A stretch of DNA of 64,000 bases from Lysobacteraceae bacterium (GTDB taxonomy: Bacteria; Bdellovibrionota; UBA1018; JAGTJX01): assembly GCA_023657465.1 (NCBI GenBank), contig JAGTJX010000003.1, forward strand, positions 311,889 to 375,888. Reading direction: 5' to 3'. Made by a program: the position numbers and the translations under genes. This document shows, piece after piece, positions 5,142 to 60,940 of the stretch. Each line of letters opens with the position of its first letter. The stretch's first letter is position 1. The notes under the pieces were generated by a model, which ran no database searches, was not told the origin of the DNA, and saw only the letters and a program-made list of their open reading frames with translations.

Positions 5142-6688
5142 AAGAAAAAGCTCAAGCCTACTTAAAGACCTCTGCGCTCTATAAGTTAGGACACCTCCCT
5201 ACCGAGCAGCAGAACCCTAAGACCATGAATTTATCAGATCTTTCTCGGACTGACCCACTGCGCGCAATTCATATTCTCCAAGAAATCGATCTGGATGCTC
5301 TCTCCGCTCTGCATCGTAGGAGCAATCAAGTTGAGCGTTTGAGACTCGTGATCAGAGACACACTCCTAGGCGGAGGCAGGATTTATCTCTGTGGATGTGG
5401 CGCTACCGGGCGACTTTCACTCTCTCTCGAATCTTTCTGGCGCGAAACACGCGAAGGCACTGATCTCGTCGACCGCGTCGTGAGCTTCATGGCCGGTGGA
5501 GACATCGCACTTGTCCGAGCAGCTGAGAACTTCGAAGATTATTCAGACTACGGCTCTCGTCATCTTACAGAATTAGGATTCAAAGACGGCGATCTATTAC
5601 TTGCCATCACTGAGGGTGGAGAAACTCCTTATGTGATCGGCGCTGCTCTCGCTGCCAAAGATATTTCTGAAATTCCACCTTGGTTCCTCTATTGCAATCC
5701 CGATTCTGCTCTCGTTGGATCGATCGAGCGATCTCGCCAAGTCATTGAAGACTCAGGAATTGAGAAGCTGAATCTCGAAACAGGTCCAATGGCGATCTCA
5801 GGAAGCACTCGACTTCAAGCGAGCACCGTTCTCATGTACGCAGTAGGGCTTGCACTCCTCGAGTTTGAAAGTGAAGAGAAGATCGCAGACCAGATCGCAA
5901 AGTTTATCGAACAAGTTCAGCAAGCGGATCTTGAGTTCTTGGTACCTTTCATTGAGCATGAATCTAAGTATTACACCGAAGGACACGGTATCTATTATCA
6001 GACTGACGTCTATGAGATCACCGTACTCACAGACACAACCGAGCGTCATCCGACGTTCAGTCTACAGCCGTTTGAAAACTCACATGAACCGGACGCTCAA
6101 CCTTCTCTCTCTTACCTATATCTTCCTCACGCAAGAAACACTGAGGACGGATGGTTCCAGACATTGAAGCGCAAGCCACGCGCACTGGATTGGGAAGGCT
6201 ACGGCGATAGATTGGGACTTAAGAAACTCTACGGTTATGACTTCTCTGTAGCTAGTGTGGAGCGCAGGAAAAACAAATTCAAAGAAAACCACTTCTTCAA
6301 AATCGACCGCGAAGGCTTACTGATGCGGTTCCGTTTAGACGATATTCGTGGAACGATCCCCATTCACAGAATGAGTATTCTAGAGGAACACCTCATGCTC
6401 AAAATGTGCATCAATATCCTCTCTTGCCTCGTCATGGGTCGCATGGGCAGAATCGAAGGCAATGTCATGAGTTGGGTAAAACCCTCTAACGGAAAACTTA
6501 TTGATCGTACGATCCGCTACGTTCAAATGCTCTATGAGGCTAAATACAGTGAAACCAAGCAGGGTGTCGATAATCACAAGAAGAAACCTACTCCGACTTA
6601 CGAATCCATCTGCGATAAGTTATTTATTGCTCTCGAGACTTTCAAGGGAGATGAATCTATCGTAATGAAAGTTCTCTCCCAATGCTAG
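5123..6688 (+). CDS. SIS-domain protein of the MurQ/GckR (MurNAc-6-P etherase / glucokinase-regulator-like) family
   Basis: N-terminal LPTEQQNPKTMNLSDLS...GGGRIYLCGCGATGRLS resembles the MurQ N-terminus and SIS phosphosugar-binding loop. At 521 aa it is longer than MurQ and closer to GckR-like. Confidence 0.55.
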   Translation: MTDQSPQEKAQAYLKTSALYKLGHLPTEQQNPKTMNLSDLSRTDPLRAIHILQEIDLDALSALHRRSNQVERLRLVIRDTLLGGGRIYLCGCGATGRLSLSLESFWRETREGTDLVDRVVSFMAGGDIALVRAAENFEDYSDYGSRHLTELGFKDGDLLLAITEGGETPYVIGAALAAKDISEIPPWFLYCNPDSALVGSIERSRQVIEDSGIEKLNLETGPMAISGSTRLQASTVLMYAVGLALLEFESEEKIADQIAKFIEQVQQADLEFLVPFIEHESKYYTEGHGIYYQTDVYEITVLTDTTERHPTFSLQPFENSHEPDAQPSLSYLYLPHARNTEDGWFQTLKRKPRALDWEGYGDRLGLKKLYGYDFSVASVERRKNKFKENHFFKIDREGLLMRFRLDDIRGTIPIHRMSILEEHLMLKMCINILSCLVMGRMGRIEGNVMSWVKPSNGKLIDRTIRYVQMLYEAKYSETKQGVDNHKKKPTPTYESICDKLFIALETFKGDESIVMKVLSQC

Positions 6689-7137
6689 ATGCTTTCTTTT
6701 TAAAGCTAAAACTTCGTATGATTAATATTTGGCCACCATTTTTATTTTCTGGGATTTGGGTAAGCTATCCTGATTCGAACTTACGCACTGTCGTAGTTTC
6801 ACTGAGAGATTACTTCTTAAACCGAAACGCACAGGGTACTCATTACGGTGGATCGCTGTTCTCGATGACAGACCCCTTCTATGCACTGATACTCATGAAT
6901 GCCCTTGGCCCCAAGTACATAGTTTGGGATAAGTCGGCAGAGATTCAGTTTCTGAAGCCAGGAAGAAAACTCGTGCGAGCAGAATTCCATATCCCCGAAG
7001 AAGAAATTGAGAAGATCAGAATCACACTTGAAACAGAACGAAAAGTAGAGCCTGTGTTTGATGCGACTGTGGTCGATTTAGAGGGTACAGTCGTTTGCAA
7101 AGTCAAAAAAGTTCTCTATGTACGCAAACGCGCTTAG
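6682..7137 (+). CDS. hot-dog fold thioesterase-like protein (DUF4442-like)
   Basis: 151 aa with HYGGSLFSMTDPFYALILMNALGPKYIVWDK pattern, typical of DUF4442/PaaI-like hot-dog proteins. Confidence 0.4.
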   Translation: MLDAFFLKLKLRMINIWPPFLFSGIWVSYPDSNLRTVVVSLRDYFLNRNAQGTHYGGSLFSMTDPFYALILMNALGPKYIVWDKSAEIQFLKPGRKLVRAEFHIPEEEIEKIRITLETERKVEPVFDATVVDLEGTVVCKVKKVLYVRKRA

Positions 7138-7189
7138 CGAGTGCAATTTTAGTTTTCCAAAGATTTATTAAACAAACCCACCCTTTTTT

Positions 7190-7240
7190 ATGGTGACACA
7201 GCGTTCCCTTATCAGGTTGTGGCATGAGTGTGGCATGGGC
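7190..7240. repeat. left arm of ~50-bp imperfect inverted repeat (core TATCAGGTTGTGGCATGAGTGTGGCAT)
   Basis: Reverse-complement match to 7713-7762. There is a 27-bp near-perfect core and a ~45-bp span at about 80% identity. It contains the tandem TGTGGCATG x2. Confidence 0.8.
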
Positions 7241-7703
7241 AACGACATGCGGGTGGTAACCTTGCAGGATACAAAACACTCTGAAGCCTTTGCCAGGTAT
7301 CCTCCTTCGGAACGACCTTGCCATGTTCGATGTGACTGAGATGAGTTCGGTCAATTCCTGCTTTTCTAGCCAAAGATTCTTGAGTCAAGCGCAGCTGTTG
7401 TCTACGTACCCGCAGCTTCAATCCCGCGTGAACATTTTTAGACTGAATTTGAATAGCTTGGCGAGTCCTGACTTGTTGAATAGGATCATAGAATGACTGC
7501 AGTCCAGACATAGCGTCCGAATGTCGGATCTGACTCCATCTGAATTCGATGATTTTACTTTCTCGAATCGCTCTCCAAACCATGAGGGCAAAAGTTTTTC
7601 TTGCATCATGGCCTAATGATTTTGATTCAATGCTGATTTTAATTAATGCTGGCCTGTAATGGGCTTCAATCATGGTTTTCTTAAATTCGTTTTTGTTTTT
7701 CAT
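7212..7703 (-). CDS. XRE-family HTH DNA-binding protein (C-terminal HTH_3) with uncharacterised N-terminal ~80 aa
   Basis: LKLRVRRQQLRLTQESLARKAGIDRTHLSHIEHGKVVPKEDTWQRLQSVL is a canonical XRE helix-turn-helix. The ORF tail reads through the left inverted repeat. The start was chosen at MKNKNEF (7703) rather than the track start inside the right repeat. Confidence 0.6.
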   Translation of the reverse strand: MKNKNEFKKTMIEAHYRPALIKISIESKSLGHDARKTFALMVWRAIRESKIIEFRWSQIRHSDAMSGLQSFYDPIQQVRTRQAIQIQSKNVHAGLKLRVRRQQLRLTQESLARKAGIDRTHLSHIEHGKVVPKEDTWQRLQSVLYPARLPPACRCPCHTHATT

Positions 7704-7712
7704 GAACGCATA

Positions 7713-7762
7713 GCAATGCCACATTCATGCCACAACCTGATAACAGAGCAAACGTGTCACTA
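7713..7762. repeat. right arm of ~50-bp imperfect inverted repeat
   Basis: Reverse complement of 7190-7240. It ends 4 bp before the stop codon of the tgt-fusion gene (7766-7768). Confidence 0.8.
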
Positions 7763-7765
7763 AAA

Positions 7766-9775
7766 TCAGCCCTGAAACTGTGGATGCTGCTTAATCTCTG
7801 AATCCCACTCTGGATTCCTACTTCCACTACGTGACCATTGATCGATGAACTCACGCTTGAGCCACTGAACATCACTCGCCCACTTACTCTTAAATCCAGC
7901 ACGATTTCCTGCCACTGTCGTATGAGATCGCGCACCTGTCGCCCGACCCTGTCCAACGTACCAGCCGGAAGCTAAGAGCGCCCCTCGCACAGCGGTCGAA
8001 GCAGTATAAGTGTATAGCAAACACTCGCGATCTGAAGTCTTAGAGAGAATCCGCTTAAACATCTCATGCTTCCAAAGCTCTGTGTCGGTATGTGTAGAAA
8101 ACGGATCATAAAAAATAATATCTGGACTAGCAACTTTAGGGAACTGATGACGGAAGTCGCCTTCAAGCAAGATCCACTCAATCTTGCCATCTCTTGAAAT
8201 CCACCGATGATCATCAAGTAGAGTCTGCACTACACTCTCAAGCTCTCGCATATGAGGGAAAAGATCACTTCGCGCAGCCGCTAATCTCATCGCATCGAGA
8301 TCTTTCTCGAAGCTGATGATGAGACTTGGATTATTCCTCTCGGTACCACTTCTACCCATGAGCGATCTAATGACAGCAATCGCATTATGACCTGCGCCTA
8401 ATCCTACATCCCAAACGACAAGCCGCTCAGTCTCACCCACTCGTTCGCGCACACGAGATTGCTCAGCATAGATGGAGTGCGCTTCGCTATCTGGATGCTG
8501 AGTCGAATGCATGATCTCTCCTGATGTCTTGCACTTCACACTGAAGAAACCCTTGTCAGATTTTACGACTTCGAAGTTTCCTAGTTCGAGCAACACGGGA
8601 GACAGCGAAGCTGTTTCGCGTGGTGCTCCAAGTGGTAGCTTAGGCAGATTCTGCTCATCATCCTGAACAAGCGCTAATCGCTTGGCTACGTAATATTCAT
8701 AGAATGTTCCAGCTAAGATCTGCTTGCGCATCTCGCGCATGAGCTCATGATAGAAGTACAGATTGTGGTTGGCGACTAAGCTCCAACCATAGAACTCTTT
8801 GGATTTAATCAGATGATGAATGTAAGCACGGGAATGAGTGGCACATGTGGGACACTTACAATTCTCATCAATCGGACCCGAACCTAATCTATAAACTCCA
8901 CGCGAAAGCTTGATCACACCTTGATGAGTAAACGCCACACCCTGCTGTGCTTGAGCAGTGGGAAGTATGCAATCGAACATATCGACACCACGGTGAACCG
9001 CTTCGAGTAGATCAATGGGCTTACCTACACCCATGAGATATCGCGGGCGATCCTCAGGCATGAATGCTGTCGTAAATTCAGTGAAGTGTTCGCGTTCTTC
9101 GCGGGTCTCTCCTACAGCAAGCCCTCCGATTGCGTACCCATCAAACGGCATTTCACGTAAAACCTCTGCTGACTCTCGTCTCAAATCTTCGAAGAGCGCG
9201 CCTTGAACAATCCCAAACATACTTTGTGGCGAATCTCCATGAGCCTCTAAACTTCTCTTAGCCCATCGATGAGTGAGCTCCATCGCCTCTGCTGCTTCTT
9301 CACGATTGGAAGTGGATGCAATACATTGATCGAGTACCATCATGATATCTGATCCGATTGAGCGCTGGACAGCGATGCTCTTCTCAGGAGTGAGCAGAAT
9401 CTTGTGACCATCGACTTGGCTCACAAACTCTGCACCCCTCTCACTCATGCGCCTAGCGTGAGTGAGAGAGAAAATCTGGAAGCCACCTGAATCAGTGAGT
9501 ACGCTCTTCCCCCAGTTCATGAACTTGTGAATGCCACCGATATGATCGAAGACTTCAGTCCCCGGCCTGAGCATCAAGTGATACGTATTTGCTAATAAGA
9601 TTTGGGAGCCAGATTTCTGTGCATCTTCAGGCCTTAAAGCCTTAATCGTGGCCTGAGTACCCACAGGCATAAACAATGGGGTTAAAACTTCATTATGTAG
9701 CGTTTGAAACCATGCAGCACGAGCACTTGTTTTCTGCATTTTTTGTGACTTGATTTTAAAACCTAAACGACTCAT
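7766..9775 (-). CDS. tgt: queuine tRNA-ribosyltransferase fused to a C-terminal MnmC(m)/MnmD-like SAM-dependent methyltransferase domain (DUF752/Methyltransf_30-like)
   Basis: N-terminal ~370 aa carry the Tgt motifs FMPVGT, LTDSGGFQIFSL and the zinc site CKCPTCATHSRAYIHHL. The C-terminal ~300 aa carry VVWDVGLGAGHNAI and FYDPFSTHTDTELWKHEMFKRILSKTSDRECLLYTYTASTAVRGALLASGWYVGQGRATGARSHTTVAG, matching the MnmC N-terminal methyltransferase pattern (DGFaP..NPELW...TYT.A..VRR.L..aGF.V.k..G.G.KRE). The true start may be at M13 (9739). Confidence 0.8.
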   Translation of the reverse strand: MSRLGFKIKSQKMQKTSARAAWFQTLHNEVLTPLFMPVGTQATIKALRPEDAQKSGSQILLANTYHLMLRPGTEVFDHIGGIHKFMNWGKSVLTDSGGFQIFSLTHARRMSERGAEFVSQVDGHKILLTPEKSIAVQRSIGSDIMMVLDQCIASTSNREEAAEAMELTHRWAKRSLEAHGDSPQSMFGIVQGALFEDLRRESAEVLREMPFDGYAIGGLAVGETREEREHFTEFTTAFMPEDRPRYLMGVGKPIDLLEAVHRGVDMFDCILPTAQAQQGVAFTHQGVIKLSRGVYRLGSGPIDENCKCPTCATHSRAYIHHLIKSKEFYGWSLVANHNLYFYHELMREMRKQILAGTFYEYYVAKRLALVQDDEQNLPKLPLGAPRETASLSPVLLELGNFEVVKSDKGFFSVKCKTSGEIMHSTQHPDSEAHSIYAEQSRVRERVGETERLVVWDVGLGAGHNAIAVIRSLMGRSGTERNNPSLIISFEKDLDAMRLAAARSDLFPHMRELESVVQTLLDDHRWISRDGKIEWILLEGDFRHQFPKVASPDIIFYDPFSTHTDTELWKHEMFKRILSKTSDRECLLYTYTASTAVRGALLASGWYVGQGRATGARSHTTVAGNRAGFKSKWASDVQWLKREFIDQWSRSGSRNPEWDSEIKQHPQFQG

Positions 9776-34023: not shown

Positions 34024-35472
34024 TTATTCTGTTTCTTTGTTTTTATCTTCTACAAGATCAAGCTCTTCATCAGTCACATGCTGCTCAACAAAGCCATACT
34101 CTCTTTCCTTGCGATAAAGAGTTCTTCGTGTGAATCCAAGAATCTGCGCAGCCTGTTCTTTTCTTCCGCCTGTCTTCTCTAATATGACTTGCATGTATCT
34201 ACGCTCGAGCTGCTCAACAGTAGGAAAATCAGTGATTGCAGAACCAAAGAACTCTTCAGCATTTGTCACACCAGGCGTAGGAATATCGCCTTCACTAATC
34301 ATACTATCAGTAGCAAGCACAACAGCACGCTCAACCACGTTTTCAAGCTCTCTTACGTTTCCATCCCATCTAAAGCTCATGAGCTTATTCATGGCGCGCT
34401 TACTAAAACCTTTCACACGTAAATTATTGGTTGCAGAGTACTTTTGCAAAAAATGTTCTGCCAAGAGAGGCACATCTTCTTTTCTCTGTCTCAGGGGAGG
34501 AATAACAATAGGAATGACGCTGAGACGGTAATAGAGATCTTCTCTGAATCGTCCATCCTTCATTGCCGATTTAAGATCTTTATGGGTAGCAGCGATGATC
34601 CTGACATCTACATCCTTGGTCATGTTTTCACCCACCGCACGGACTTTCTTTTCTTGAATCACGCGGAGTAGCTTTGTTTGAAGGAGTACATTCATGTCCC
34701 CAATTTCATCTAGAAAGAGAGTTCCTCCTTCAGCTTCTTCAAACAAACCTCTTTTACGTTGAATCGCTCCTGTAAAAGATCCTTTTGCATGGCCGAACAA
34801 CTCAGACTCTAAAAGAGTTTCTGGGATAGCTGTACAATTGATAGCAACAAAAGGTTTTTTCGATCGTGGCCCGCTTTCATGAATAGCGCGCGCTACCATT
34901 TCTTTTCCGGTGCCACTTTCTCCCATAATAAGAATATTCGCAGTTGCTTGTGAAACTCTGGAGACCAGGTCAAAGACTGATTTCATCTCAGGACTTTTGC
35001 CTACAATTCCATTCATTGACCAAGAACGTTTCACGACTTGCCTGAGTGCTGTGTTATCTCTCTGAAGCTTACGATGCTCCATCGCGCGAAGCACGTTGAC
35101 CGACATCTCAGCTAGTTTGAATGGTTTTACAATGTAATGAAACGCTCCACGCCTCATTGCTTCGATCGCTGTCTCAATACTTCCAAAAGCTGTGATGAGA
35201 ATCACGGGAATTTCTGATCTGATTTCTTGTAGGCGAGAAGTGAATTCTAGGCCGCTGATCTCTGGCATGTTGATATCAGAGATAATCAAGTCGACATCTC
35301 CATTCTCTTTTTCAATGGATAGTGCGCCTCCTGGCGAAAGGTTCTGAATCGCATCGACTGCGGAAGGAAATACGTGCACATCATATCCTTCGCTACTGAG
35401 GAAGTCCTTGAGTAAGGAGCGCATTTCCTTTTCATCGTCGACCACTACAATTCGACCTTTAAAATCACTCAT
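34024..35472 (-). CDS. sigma-54-dependent response regulator (NtrC family: REC + AAA+ + Fis HTH)
   Basis: Receiver D-box, GAFHYIVKPF, Walker [25 protein letters not shown] and a C-terminal HTH. Confidence 0.9.
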   Translation of the reverse strand: MSDFKGRIVVVDDEKEMRSLLKDFLSSEGYDVHVFPSAVDAIQNLSPGGALSIEKENGDVDLIISDINMPEISGLEFTSRLQEIRSEIPVILITAFGSIETAIEAMRRGAFHYIVKPFKLAEMSVNVLRAMEHRKLQRDNTALRQVVKRSWSMNGIVGKSPEMKSVFDLVSRVSQATANILIMGESGTGKEMVARAIHESGPRSKKPFVAINCTAIPETLLESELFGHAKGSFTGAIQRKRGLFEEAEGGTLFLDEIGDMNVLLQTKLLRVIQEKKVRAVGENMTKDVDVRIIAATHKDLKSAMKDGRFREDLYYRLSVIPIVIPPLRQRKEDVPLLAEHFLQKYSATNNLRVKGFSKRAMNKLMSFRWDGNVRELENVVERAVVLATDSMISEGDIPTPGVTNAEEFFGSAITDFPTVEQLERRYMQVILEKTGGRKEQAAQILGFTRRTLYRKEREYGFVEQHVTDEELDLVEDKNKETE

Positions 35473-48686: not shown

Positions 48687-49526
48687 TCAAGATGATTTTC
48701 TCAGCCGAAGCAAAAACTGCGGAAGTTTCTCATTCAAGTCTGATGCAATTAGGCTCAGATGATCCTTGCCATCATCAATCCATTGATCTGCCATAGCTCC
48801 ATGAAGAAACACTCCCAAGCTCGCTGCCTTGATTGGAGCTAACCCTTGACTGAGAAAAGATGCGATCATTCCCGTTAAAACATCTCCCGTTCCTGCTTTG
48901 GATAAAGAGGAGTTTCCAGCAAGGATACGAAAAATGTGCTGTTCATCGGCTACGAGAGTGTGGTGTCCTTTTAAAACAATAATGCAGGAATAATTTTCTG
49001 TAGCGATTTGAATCGCTCCTTCACGGTCCGAACGAATTCTCTCTGCCGACCATCCAATCATTCGAGCGAGTTCCCCCTCGTGTGGAGTGAGTATCCAGTT
49101 TTTAGGAAGACGTAGTTTATTTTTTGAAATCACAGTGAGTGCAGTTGCATCCACAACGACATTTTTTCTCTTCTCTCGAATCCATTTCTTGAGTAACTTC
49201 AGAATCTTTAATTGGTCTGACATTCCTGGGCCAATGGCAGTCGCTTGAAACTTGAGTTGACTGAGCTGTTTAACGGAATGAATTTGAAGAAAATCAGGAT
49301 GACGAAATACAGGGAATTGTTTCTCGTCATTAAACAAATAGACATAACCTGCACCCACGCGAGCTGCTGAGGTTGCACTTAAAATAGCCGCTCCCCACAT
49401 TCCTTTGGATCCAGCAACAATGAGACACTTGCCCCCCTTGGTTTTGTTGTCGGTTTTTTCTCGTGTAGGAAGATCATGACGTGCAAGCGAACGAGTATAG
49501 TTCAATATTTTTTTGAGTTTTTTCAT
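48687..49526 (-). CDS. nnrD: ADP-dependent NAD(P)H-hydrate dehydratase (YjeF C-terminal domain)
   Basis: GGKCLIVAGSKGMWGAAILSATSAARVGAGYVYL and LSKAGTGDVLTGMIASFLSQGL. Confidence 0.75.
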   Translation of the reverse strand: MKKLKKILNYTRSLARHDLPTREKTDNKTKGGKCLIVAGSKGMWGAAILSATSAARVGAGYVYLFNDEKQFPVFRHPDFLQIHSVKQLSQLKFQATAIGPGMSDQLKILKLLKKWIREKRKNVVVDATALTVISKNKLRLPKNWILTPHEGELARMIGWSAERIRSDREGAIQIATENYSCIIVLKGHHTLVADEQHIFRILAGNSSLSKAGTGDVLTGMIASFLSQGLAPIKAASLGVFLHGAMADQWIDDGKDHLSLIASDLNEKLPQFLLRLRKSS

Positions 49527-50920
49527 GAATTGCTAACTCTGTTTTGTGACTGACGAGTTTTAACCAAGCCCAATTCATTGGCTCGTCTGAAGAATGTGGC
49601 TCTGGATAACCCAAGAGACTTTGCCGCCGAGTTTCGGTCTCCTTGAGCTGCATAGATTGCATCCTCAAAACGTTTTCGTTCAGTTAAAATCAAGCTGCCT
49701 CGATAAGTGCCCCCCAAAATGCGTTCTAAGGTATGAGGTTTGAGGCGCGCTACTTCTGGAAGAGCCTGGCAAACATCTTTTTCACGAATGATGTCACCAT
49801 CGCAACGGCTTCTCATGTTCTCGACCACACCTTGAAGTTGCCGAATGTTTCCAGGCCAACGGTATGCCTGCAAAAGTTCAAGAGCTTCCTTCGTTATAGT
49901 CTTACGTTTAAAGGATGTTGCGTGAGAAAGAAAAAACTCGACCAACTCAGGAATATCTTCTGACCTCTCCCGAAGAGAAGGCACATGAATCTTCTCACGT
50001 GCAACACGGTAATATAAATCTTCACGAAATAGTTTTTCCGTGACCAATTGCTCAAGGTTTTTGTGAGTTGCAGAAATTGTCCTGAAATTCACTTTTTTGA
50101 TTTCATTCGACCCTAGTCGAGTTATTTTTCGCTCTTGTAATGCTCGTAACAGTTTAGGTTGCTGAGACATCGGCATATCGCCAATCTCATCCATAAAAAC
50201 AAAGCCACCCGCGGCAGCCTCAAAAACACCGATCTTGTCTCGGTCGGCTCCAGTAAATGCACCGCGAATATGGCCAAACAGCTCAGATTCGATCAAGTTA
50301 TCATTTAGAGCTGCACAGTTACGCGCTAATAACTCTTTTGTAGGATCAGCTTGATTGGAAATAATGCTCGCCACTACTTCTTTTCCCGTACCCGTTTCTC
50401 CTGTCAAAAGAATATCCATCGCTCCTGATGCAACTACACGCGCAATGTCTTTTTTCAGCTGTTGCATGGGAAGTGAACTTCCAATCAACATCGTTGAATT
50501 TGAACCACTTCTCAGAGTCATTTCAACAGTGCGTCTTTTGATCTCTCTTTGATCTAAGATGAATTGAACTTTTTCTCGGATTTCTTTGGGTGAAGCAGGT
50601 TTTGAGATGAATTGGGAAACTCCCGAGTTAAAGACTTGTATCAAGTTCGATGGATTTGTTTCACCAGAAATAACGATTACGTCAGCGCCTCGATCCAATG
50701 CATGAATCTTTTTAAAAACCTCAAGCCCACTTCTTGAATCATTTTCAAAATTGAGATCAAGTAGAATAATGTCAAAGAAGGATAGCTCAATGGCTACCAA
50801 TGCTTCGTCGATACTTTTACAAGTATGCACTTCACATTGATCCTCAAGAATCATTGGCACTTGCTCAAGCCAAGTAACCTCATCATCAACTGCTAACACG
50901 CGAGGCAATCTTGAACTCAT
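49523..50920 (-). CDS. sigma-54-dependent response regulator (NtrC family)
   Basis: REC domain, Walker [24 protein letters not shown], and a C-terminal HTH. Confidence 0.9.
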
Positions 50921-59617: not shown

Positions 59618-60940
59618 ATGGAATCAAAATGGAACATCGAGATCACTGACCCTAGCGGAGAGAAGCGCGTGCTCAATCTCAGAAACTCGCCACTCACCAT
59701 CAACCAAGTACTGAAGGAAGAGATACCTTGTCCTGTTGAGCTCACACCTTTTTTAGGATCCTTCTGGCTGAAATCGACTGGAGCACCCGATACTGTTCGA
59801 GTCGGAGATCACTACTTCATTGATGGTCAGATCCCTGTAGAGACACCCATCACTATAGGAAACACCAAAATCACAATCAAACGAGCACCGATTGAAACAG
59901 AGCTACCTGAATTTCCCAAGGGCTACACTCCCTGGCTTGCTGCAAGTGAGTCAGGGATAGATGTGATTACTAAAACCAAGAAAATTGCAAAAACCAAACT
60001 CTCTGTCTACATCGCTGGTGAAACCGGAACCGGAAAAGAAATCTTAGCCTCCCTCATTCATGGTTGGAGCGAAAATGCTTCAGGACCATTCATTCCTCTT
60101 AACTGCGGAGCGCTCGCGGAGTCTGTCGCTGAGAGTGAACTTTTCGGTCACACTAAAGGATCATTCACTGGCGCACACAAAGATCGCCCTGGCGCACTCT
60201 TGCAAGCACATGGAGGAACGCTTTTCTTGGATGAAATCGCGGATCTCTCTCATGATCTTCAAGCAAAGCTCCTTAGATTCCTTGAAAATGGCGAGGTGAG
60301 ACCCGTGGGTTCTGACCGCATCCTTCACTCGAAAACTAGGATTGTTTGCGCCACCCACAAACCCCTTCGCCAGCTCGTAATCGATGGCAAGTTCAGGCGA
60401 GATTTGTATTATCGCTTGGCATCGATCAGTATTGAGATTCCCCCACTCCGAGCGAGATTAGAGGATATCGACTTCCTCTCGAGTGAGTTTGCTCGTGGAT
60501 GCAATCGAACACTTTCTCATCCTTCCATCATCAGATTGCGAGGTTATGAATGGCCCGGAAATGTCAGGGAGTTGAAACATGCCATTGAACGCGCCTCTAC
60601 CATGGCAAGCCAATTTGACCCGACTTTAGGATCTGAGCACTTTGAGTTTCTCAATGAAGAAGCATCATCACTCAGTGAGAATGGTAAAATCAATCCCCTG
60701 GGATCTCGAATGATGACGATGAAAGAAATCGAAAAAGCGATGGTGATGAGATCATTAAAGCTCGCGCAAGGACACAGAGCTACCGCTGCAAAGCTTCTCG
60801 GAGTCGCGCGCAGCACACTCTTTGATATGATGAAACGACATGGAATCAGAGGACCTAGAATGAGTTTTCCTGATCCAACAGCATTAACTCAATATCAGTT
60901 TAGTAAAAAACACGCGCTCCACTCGCCCATCAGGCAGTGA
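59618..60940 (+). CDS. sigma-54-dependent Fis-family transcriptional activator with FHA-like N-terminal domain (no receiver)
   Basis: [24 protein letters not shown], and a C-terminal HTH. The N-terminal 100 aa are beta-rich and FHA-like (tentative). Confidence 0.85.
   Translation: MESKWNIEITDPSGEKRVLNLRNSPLTINQVLKEEIPCPVELTPFLGSFWLKSTGAPDTVRVGDHYFIDGQIPVETPITIGNTKITIKRAPIETELPEFPKGYTPWLAASESGIDVITKTKKIAKTKLSVYIAGETGTGKEILASLIHGWSENASGPFIPLNCGALAESVAESELFGHTKGSFTGAHKDRPGALLQAHGGTLFLDEIADLSHDLQAKLLRFLENGEVRPVGSDRILHSKTRIVCATHKPLRQLVIDGKFRRDLYYRLASISIEIPPLRARLEDIDFLSSEFARGCNRTLSHPSIIRLRGYEWPGNVRELKHAIERASTMASQFDPTLGSEHFEFLNEEASSLSENGKINPLGSRMMTMKEIEKAMVMRSLKLAQGHRATAAKLLGVARSTLFDMMKRHGIRGPRMSFPDPTALTQYQFSKKHALHSPIRQ

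Follow-up and report, generated by a model that had tools for sequence, protein, structure and literature searches.

The 64-kb stretch of contig JAGTJX010000003.1 analysed here (the window) carries on its minus strand a gene for a 163-aa regulator (7212-7703; identical to NCBI MCM0606239.1), in which an N-terminal domain is joined to a helix-turn-helix (HTH) of the XRE type. The gene lies downstream of, and is co-directional with, the gene for a TGT-Methyltransf_30 fusion protein (tgt; 7766-9775, minus strand), and its other neighbour is a DUF4442 gene (6682-7137, plus strand). The regulator gene is bracketed by the arms of an inverted repeat. This repeat, and the likely sigma-54 promoter in its right arm, are the subject of this analysis.

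The arms recovered by the repeat search are 28 nt long and 96% complementary, with one mismatch, and 479 nt lie between them. The right arm (7716-7743) is the promoter-proximal, 5' arm of the gene. Its minus-strand sequence is TTATCAGGTTGTGGCATGAATGTGGCAT, in which two TGTGGCAT units follow each other at a spacing of 11 bp. The left, 3' arm (7209-7236; TTATCAGGTTGTGGCATGAGTGTGGCAT on the plus strand) covers the last seven codons of the regulator (CHTHATT) and the stop codon. The preliminary description of this DNA had a single XRE-HTH gene of ~160 aa lying between the repeats; the gene is as it said, but it does not lie wholly between the arms, since the left one overlaps its end. The 28-mer and its 19-nt core (TGTGGCATGARTGTGGCAT) each occur exactly twice in the 64 kb with up to three mismatches allowed, against an expectation of 0.00-0.03. 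Among the 54 window open reading frames (ORFs) of at least 120 aa, only the regulator gene is bracketed by an inverted repeat, with a score of 19 in that run and at most 10 for the rest.

Outer heptamers extend the repeat. GTGACAC (7193-7199, plus strand) and GTGTCAC (7754-7760, plus strand) stand 9-10 nt beyond the cores, with an indel in between, and the result is an imperfect repeat of ~44-45 nt per side. The two imperfect inverted repeats of ~50 bp and the GTGACAC at both outer ends, as first reported, are therefore borne out. The right repeat had been placed 4 bp from the tgt stop codon (7766-7768), whereas GTGTCAC ends 5 nt away from it. The repeats had also been said to fill the space between the DUF4442 and tgt genes, which is true of the right edge but not of the left, where 55 nt separate the DUF4442 stop codon from GTGACAC. 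The left-arm extension is specific to the window genome, and GTGACAC is not kept in the orthologues described below. The short complementary pair noted around the left repeat, CCCACCC (7179-7185) and GGGTGG (7243-7248), was found as well. We rejected this pair as a terminator: the local fold is no better than that of shuffled sequences (z = +0.7), and the pair is not conserved in the closest orthologue, L004.

The core of the right arm contains a -24/-12 element of the sigma-54 type, TGGCATGAATGTGGCA, at 7717-7732 on the minus strand. Sigma-54 promoters follow the consensus TGGCACG-N4-TTGCW with GG-N10-GC geometry. The window element, TGGCAT-GAATG-TGGCA (7732-7717), keeps the GG-N10-GC spacing and departs from the consensus at two positions, having T for C in the -24 element and G for T at -14. 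The pattern TGGCAYG-N4-TKGCA has two matches in the 64 kb, both of them in the arms, where none is expected. The -12 C at 7718 is 14 nt ahead of the regulator ATG, and across the four orthologues this distance is 13-14 nt. From the -12 position, the transcript is therefore predicted to start at ~7706 with a leader of ~3 nt, which would make the mRNA near-leaderless. The start codon is the ATG at 7703; conservation speaks against a second in-frame ATG, at 7724, as the orthologue L003 has an intervening stop codon. No Shine-Dalgarno sequence precedes the regulator ATG in any of the four orthologues. Upstream of the regulator no sense-strand sigma-70-like promoter was found, and between tgt and the right arm no terminator, the counts of both being at the level of shuffles.

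The organism uses sigma-54, as indicated by three PF00158 (Sigma54_activat) proteins encoded within the window. These enhancer-binding activators lie at 34024-35472 and 49523-50920 on the minus strand and at 59618-60940 on the plus strand, and two of the three have receiver domains. Another sigma-54-like site, TGGCACTCTTCGTGCA, is found at ~47257 on the minus strand. The decisive support for the promoter is comparative, because paralogues share the position of the element. All six distant paralogues that we compared (23-30% identity) have a sigma-54-like element with its -12 C 12-16 nt ahead of the start codon: TGGCACGGCCCTTGCT (L126), TGGTATGAGTCTTGCT (L127), TGGCGCGGGAATTGCG (L128), TGGAACAGGATTTGCT (L129), GGGCACATTCCCTGCT (L130), and TGGTTCGAATTGTGCT (L131). 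These elements are of a more canonical TGGCAC/TTGCT type at the matching position. We therefore consider it likely, judging from sequence, that the right-arm core is the sigma-54 promoter of the regulator gene.

A protein homologue search across 5.8 billion proteins returned only three homologues above 60% identity, all metagenomic: L004 (93%), L001/L002 (74%), and L003 (64%). The gene order S8 peptidase-response regulator-tgt fusion-HTH-DUF4442-SIS is common to them. The same inverted repeat is in the same places in L004, L001, and L003, the right arm included, and all four orthologous loci, counting the window, have one orientation. The preliminary description had named a single-copy repeat together with a conserved gene order as the mark of a resident regulator rather than a mobile cassette, and it is the resident regulator that the order tgt-HTH-DUF4442, kept together with the repeat in L004, L001, and L003, speaks for. 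The arms are 498 bp apart, centre to centre, at three of the orthologous loci; at L001 the figure is 509 bp, and the additional 11 bp correspond to about one helical turn. In the stretch covered by the 3' arm, the synonymous sites are invariant across the four orthologues, and the remainder of the gene diverges. The outer positions of the arms vary between orthologues and match within each locus (TATCAGGTTG, TATAG(C/G)TTTG, and TATCGGTTTG), while the recognition helix is identical in all four. Outer arms that co-vary next to an identical helix indicate concerted evolution, which binding specificity alone does not predict. The longest nucleotide run invariant across all four orthologues, synonymous sites included, is elsewhere in the gene, at 7515-7530 (alignment positions 186-201; codons IRHSD), where the palindrome TCCGA-ATG-TCGGA lies within GTCCGAATGTCGGATC. 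This palindrome might conceivably serve as an internal, third operator or form an RNA hairpin.

In the regulator, a linker joins a small beta-beta-alpha-beta N-domain (residues ~8-61) to an XRE helix-turn-helix (~89-144), and a CxCxCHxH tail follows. The HTH matches PF13560 (HTH_31) and PF01381 (HTH_3) over residues ~97-150 and is of the Cro/cI type. The structure model of the regulator, with a predicted local distance difference test (pLDDT) score of 79, matches only XRE repressors, including ClgR, C.AhdI, P22 c2, 434, and lambda cI. Only the four orthologues have the Cys/His-rich tail (window 7215-7256), part of whose coding sequence is the 3' arm. A role of the tail in metal binding is conceivable, as is an origin as a by-product of the DNA site. 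In the paralogue L129, the 3' arm is read in the same frame as in the window (KCHN).

An exhaustive HMMER search placed the regulator in a family of ~140-220-aa proteins that have the same N-domain and XRE HTH, at 23-35% identity. The family comprises at least ~30 clusters at 50% identity. At the six paralogue loci listed above and at the orthologous loci, we took as the score the best ungapped inverted match of the 160 nt before the start codon to the stop-codon region, with 200-300 shuffles per locus. The window, L004, L001, and L003 scored 23-27 with arms of 27-33 nt. Significant gene-bracketing repeats of locus-specific sequence were found at four of the six paralogue loci (scores 16-43): L129 scored 43 (arm 46 nt, 1 mismatch), L128 22 (arm 46 nt, ~80% matched), L130 17 (arm 20 nt, 1 mismatch), and L127 16 (arm 31 nt). 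L126 and L131 scored at background, with no arms. The best shuffle at a locus scored 10-16, and at the eight positive loci all of 300 shuffles stayed below the observed score. The direct-repeat control of the same test was never significant. The 3' arm is always within ~55 nt of the stop codon and often within the ORF. In the paralogues, the sigma-54 element comes after the 5' arm, which ends 29-111 nt ahead of the ATG; overlap of arm and promoter is confined to the clade of the window. The bracketing repeat is a trait of the protein family.

The arm motifs correlate with the recognition helix. Loci with the helix (R/S)THLSHIE, namely the window clade, L129, and L130, have arms that share [TG]TGGCA[TA] units, and L128, with another helix, has another arm core (GACGTCAAAGGTGTC). 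This correlation across paralogues is indirect support for binding of the arms by the protein. The 11-bp spacing of the direct sub-repeats, one helical turn, reaches significance in the 5' arm of L127 as well as in the two window arms. Searching with a profile of the N-domain added no new members to the family, the matches in NCBIfam were to HTH domains only and below threshold, and the sources annotate the members only as generic XRE regulators. Our literature searches found no description of the family, its architecture, or its bracketing repeats. Two further features stand out at the paralogue loci without arms. At L126, a second ORF of ~106 aa (2139-2459) matches the family N-domain only (profile positions 13-53, E 3e-5), which suggests that this domain is able to occur alone. 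At L131, a tandem GGGGCTTGGCA[CT]AGAA occurs twice in sense orientation at the 3' end of the ORF (~1150-1216), also with GG-N10-GC spacing.

We hypothesize that the gene encodes a resident, sigma-54-driven, near-leaderless XRE regulator that represses itself via paired operators at both gene ends, and we put the chance that this model is right as a whole at roughly even. The preliminary description had offered a repressor-plus-operators module as one of two possibilities, and this is the one that the evidence favours. Two TGTGGCAT units, 11 bp apart, lie on the -24/-12 element, and the unit recurs in the 3' arm, which makes it a candidate operator overlapping the regulator's own promoter. It is plausible that these tandem units are the binding sites of the HTH protein. 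We infer negative autoregulation and looping because of the 11-bp sub-repeats, the correlation between helix and arm motif, the arm distances, and the structure matches to XRE repressors only. The location of the paralogue 5' arm upstream of the promoter, where it is absent from the sigma-54 transcript, also points to a site that works at the DNA level.

In the proposed mechanism, sigma-54 RNA polymerase and an enhancer-binding activator would start transcription at the right-arm core, ~3 nt before the ATG, and the practically leaderless mRNA would be translated into the XRE-type DNA-binding protein. The protein would most likely bind the TGTGGCAT-N3-TGTGGCAT repeats of both arms. Binding at the promoter arm would occlude the -24/-12 element and shut off the protein's own synthesis. 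The second site, inverted and lying across the gene's own stop codon 498 bp away, would strengthen repression by cooperative looping of the gene. The arms may also block polymerases that enter from the tgt and DUF4442 flanks, presenting the same face both ways and acting as roadblocks.

Several points weigh against this model. The window has no rpoN gene and no activator binding site was identified in it, the -12 element reads TGGCA instead of the usual TTGCA/T, and the arm could be an operator only. Palindromes, rather than direct repeats, are the usual targets of XRE dimers. The near-identical 46-nt arms of L129 exceed the need of a simple operator, and two of the six paralogues (L126 and L131) have no significant bracketing repeat. 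Finally, the co-variation of the outer arms requires either gene conversion between the arms or selection for their complementarity.

Part of the same evidence can be read as a pair of convergent sigma-54 promoters. The left arm also holds a sigma-54-like element (7220-7235), which points antisense into the gene and by sequence is as good as that of the right arm. The right arm would then give the mRNA and the left arm a full-length antisense RNA or a silent closed-complex roadblock, and interference or antisense pairing, not HTH binding, would set expression. Sigma-54 contacts about -27 to -9, and across this contact region the arms are identical, both matching the pattern given above, in an organism that clearly uses sigma-54. 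The paralogues argue otherwise. In L127, L128, L129, and L130, what the 3' arm repeats is the sequence ahead of the promoter and not the promoter itself, so an antisense promoter is not the family-wide function of the 3' arm. There is also no conserved antisense ORF or start: the candidate that we considered, from an ATG at 7247 just past the left arm, is missing in L001 and L003. We regard convergent promoters as unlikely; they can coexist with the autoregulation model.

A different possibility, in keeping with the concerted evolution of the arms, is a single-gene cassette, invertible or once mobile, that has the arms as its crossover or terminal sites and on which the small protein or an enzyme in trans would act. 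The repeats bracket one gene and its promoter in eight of ten loci with locus-specific sequences, as in insertion-sequence families. The next relative, L122 (tgt 67% identical), lacks the HTH and DUF4442 genes and keeps at 8060-8083 (minus strand) a single arm-like CAGGTGTGGCATTTGTGCGGCAC followed by a leader-like GCGCTCAT, which together resemble a 5' arm and leader in orientation opposite to tgt. This relic would fit an inversion in the past with subsequent loss. Because of the retained copy, the L122 locus is not a cleanly empty site. Against a recombination unit stand the single locus with its gene order conserved to 64% identity and the one orientation of all four orthologous loci. The preliminary description had proposed a search for further copies, and no second pair was found in the genome, metagenome, or viral collections; within the source genome, the search covered the 64-kb window. 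The core scan gave 110 single matches in a 596-Gb genome collection, which is about chance level by our own estimate for 17 specified bases, two single matches in the JGI metagenomes, and five in IMG/VR; the paired core was found nowhere in these collections but at the four orthologous loci. By tblastn, the regulator has no match in plasmids or phages. There is no target-site duplication, as the flanks TTTTTTATG|GTGACAC and GTGTCAC|TAAAATCAG prolong the inversion symmetry instead of repeating each other directly, and no recombinase gene is among the called neighbours of the segment. We consider a recombination unit quite unlikely. The broader version, in which the whole family is an unrecognised self-contained cassette, inverting or once mobile, with its own sigma-54 promoter and a protein acting at its own ends, is compatible with the one-gene bracketing, the locus-specific arms, their concerted evolution, and the oppositely oriented relic in L122; we consider it very unlikely.

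The arms could instead work in RNA. Read-through from tgt, or antisense transcription from DUF4442, would then give an RNA in which a duplex of ~30-45 bp closes off the ORF, and a cut by RNase III would insulate the gene. A 641-nt sense RNA does fold with its arms paired (z = -3.2; 0/20 shuffles as good), the region between tgt and the right arm offers read-through no terminator, and the co-variation of the outer arms preserves complementarity. The core of the arms, however, is invariant in sequence across the orthologues and not merely complementary, and by our reading the differences between arms are not consistently compatible with G-U pairing on either strand. The L128 arms are only ~80% matched, and the 5' arm would be missing from the transcript that starts at the gene's own sigma-54 promoter. 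A scan of 6900-8000 gave no Rfam match, only a sub-threshold chance match. We find such a panhandle very unlikely.

The transposase-less miniature mobile element of the preliminary description is not supported: terminal inverted repeats are present (the 28-nt arms with outer GTGACAC), but the paired motif occurs at this locus and its orthologues only, in a fixed position with gene order kept to 64% identity and no target-site duplication, and the domain and fold searches found neither a transposase domain or fold nor a recombinase fold in the regulator.

The neighbours called around the regulator gene encode a cytochrome, SIS, DUF4442, TGT, a response regulator, and an S8 peptidase. The TGT is fused here to an MnmC-like Methyltransf_30 domain, and all 120 of the 120 matches listed carry both domains, several of them labelled Oligoflexia or Bdellovibrionales. 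The source metagenome-assembled genome is labelled Xanthomonadaceae at NCBI. The G+C content of the window is 43%, and the named relatives of the tgt fusion are nearly all labelled Oligoflexia, Bdellovibrionales, or Bacteriovoracia; the Xanthomonadaceae label is probably wrong. On an unrelated contig, L116 (JAEEGL014658068.1, ~436-510), we came across a cluster of TGCCACA repeats (ATGCCACACTCATGCCACAATACC...GATGCCACATAGTGCCACACGCCTGCCACA), which may be an iteron-like array.

The proposed arrangement has partial counterparts among known systems. In phage lambda, the Cro/cI-type gene cI lies between the inverted operator clusters OL and OR; its PRM transcript is leaderless, and its autoregulation involves looping over a long range. 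The bracketed regulator gene, with autoregulation proposed here, is the point of likeness, and P22 c2, 434, and lambda cI match the HTH domain of the regulator structurally. Lambda cI differs in its phage context, its sigma-70 promoters, its 2.4-kb loop, and its operators, which control lytic promoters. Here, in contrast, one gene lies in a chromosomal housekeeping neighbourhood with a proposed loop of ~0.5 kb, near-identical arms of 28-46 nt, and no match in the phage collections. Among the controller (C) proteins of restriction-modification systems, the operators lie on the protein's own promoter and the mRNA is leaderless (PMC2175313). C proteins such as C.PvuII and C.AhdI are, however, ~70-100 aa long without the N-terminal domain, and have sigma-70 promoters and palindromic operators side by side upstream. 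The unit described here has a sigma-54-like promoter, direct sub-repeats, a second site 498 bp off in the 3' end of the gene, and no restriction-modification system.

A precedent for sigma-54-driven XRE regulators is XrpA of Cereibacter sphaeroides, an XRE-family repressor whose expression needs RpoN3 and the cognate activator AprX (PMC11999139). XrpA is 120 aa long and not homologous to the present family, and its domains come in the reverse order, the HTH being N-terminal and the C-terminal region helical. In a term search, both "inverted repeat" and "leaderless" were absent from that paper. Insertion sequences and miniature inverted-repeat transposable elements resemble the locus in their inverted ends of 25-50 bp, in a promoter in or next to one end, and in an ORF running into the other. 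Unlike them, the locus shows neither a transposase fold nor a target-site duplication, was found in one copy only, and keeps its position over species-level divergence. We see the regulator unit as a sigma-54-driven, near-leaderless variant of the autoregulated XRE regulator, probably self-repressing, with paired sites that bracket its own gene, and common to a small uncharacterised family.

The analysis removes what is probably a false lead, as the locus does not behave as a transposase-less mobile element. If the model is true, the locus would represent a compact and unusual design, a sigma-54-driven, essentially leaderless XRE repressor with operators at both ends of its gene, one of them inside the coding sequence. 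It would also be a testable case of a sigma-54 promoter repressed by direct occlusion, and a case in which a DNA site constrains the C-terminus of a protein, here the CHTHAT tail. The design recurs in a poorly known family in Bdellovibrio-like and deltaproteobacterial metagenome genomes, and an inverted repeat that brackets a gene, together with GG-N10-GC placed 12-16 nt before the ATG, provides a simple sequence signature by which further members may be found and annotated.

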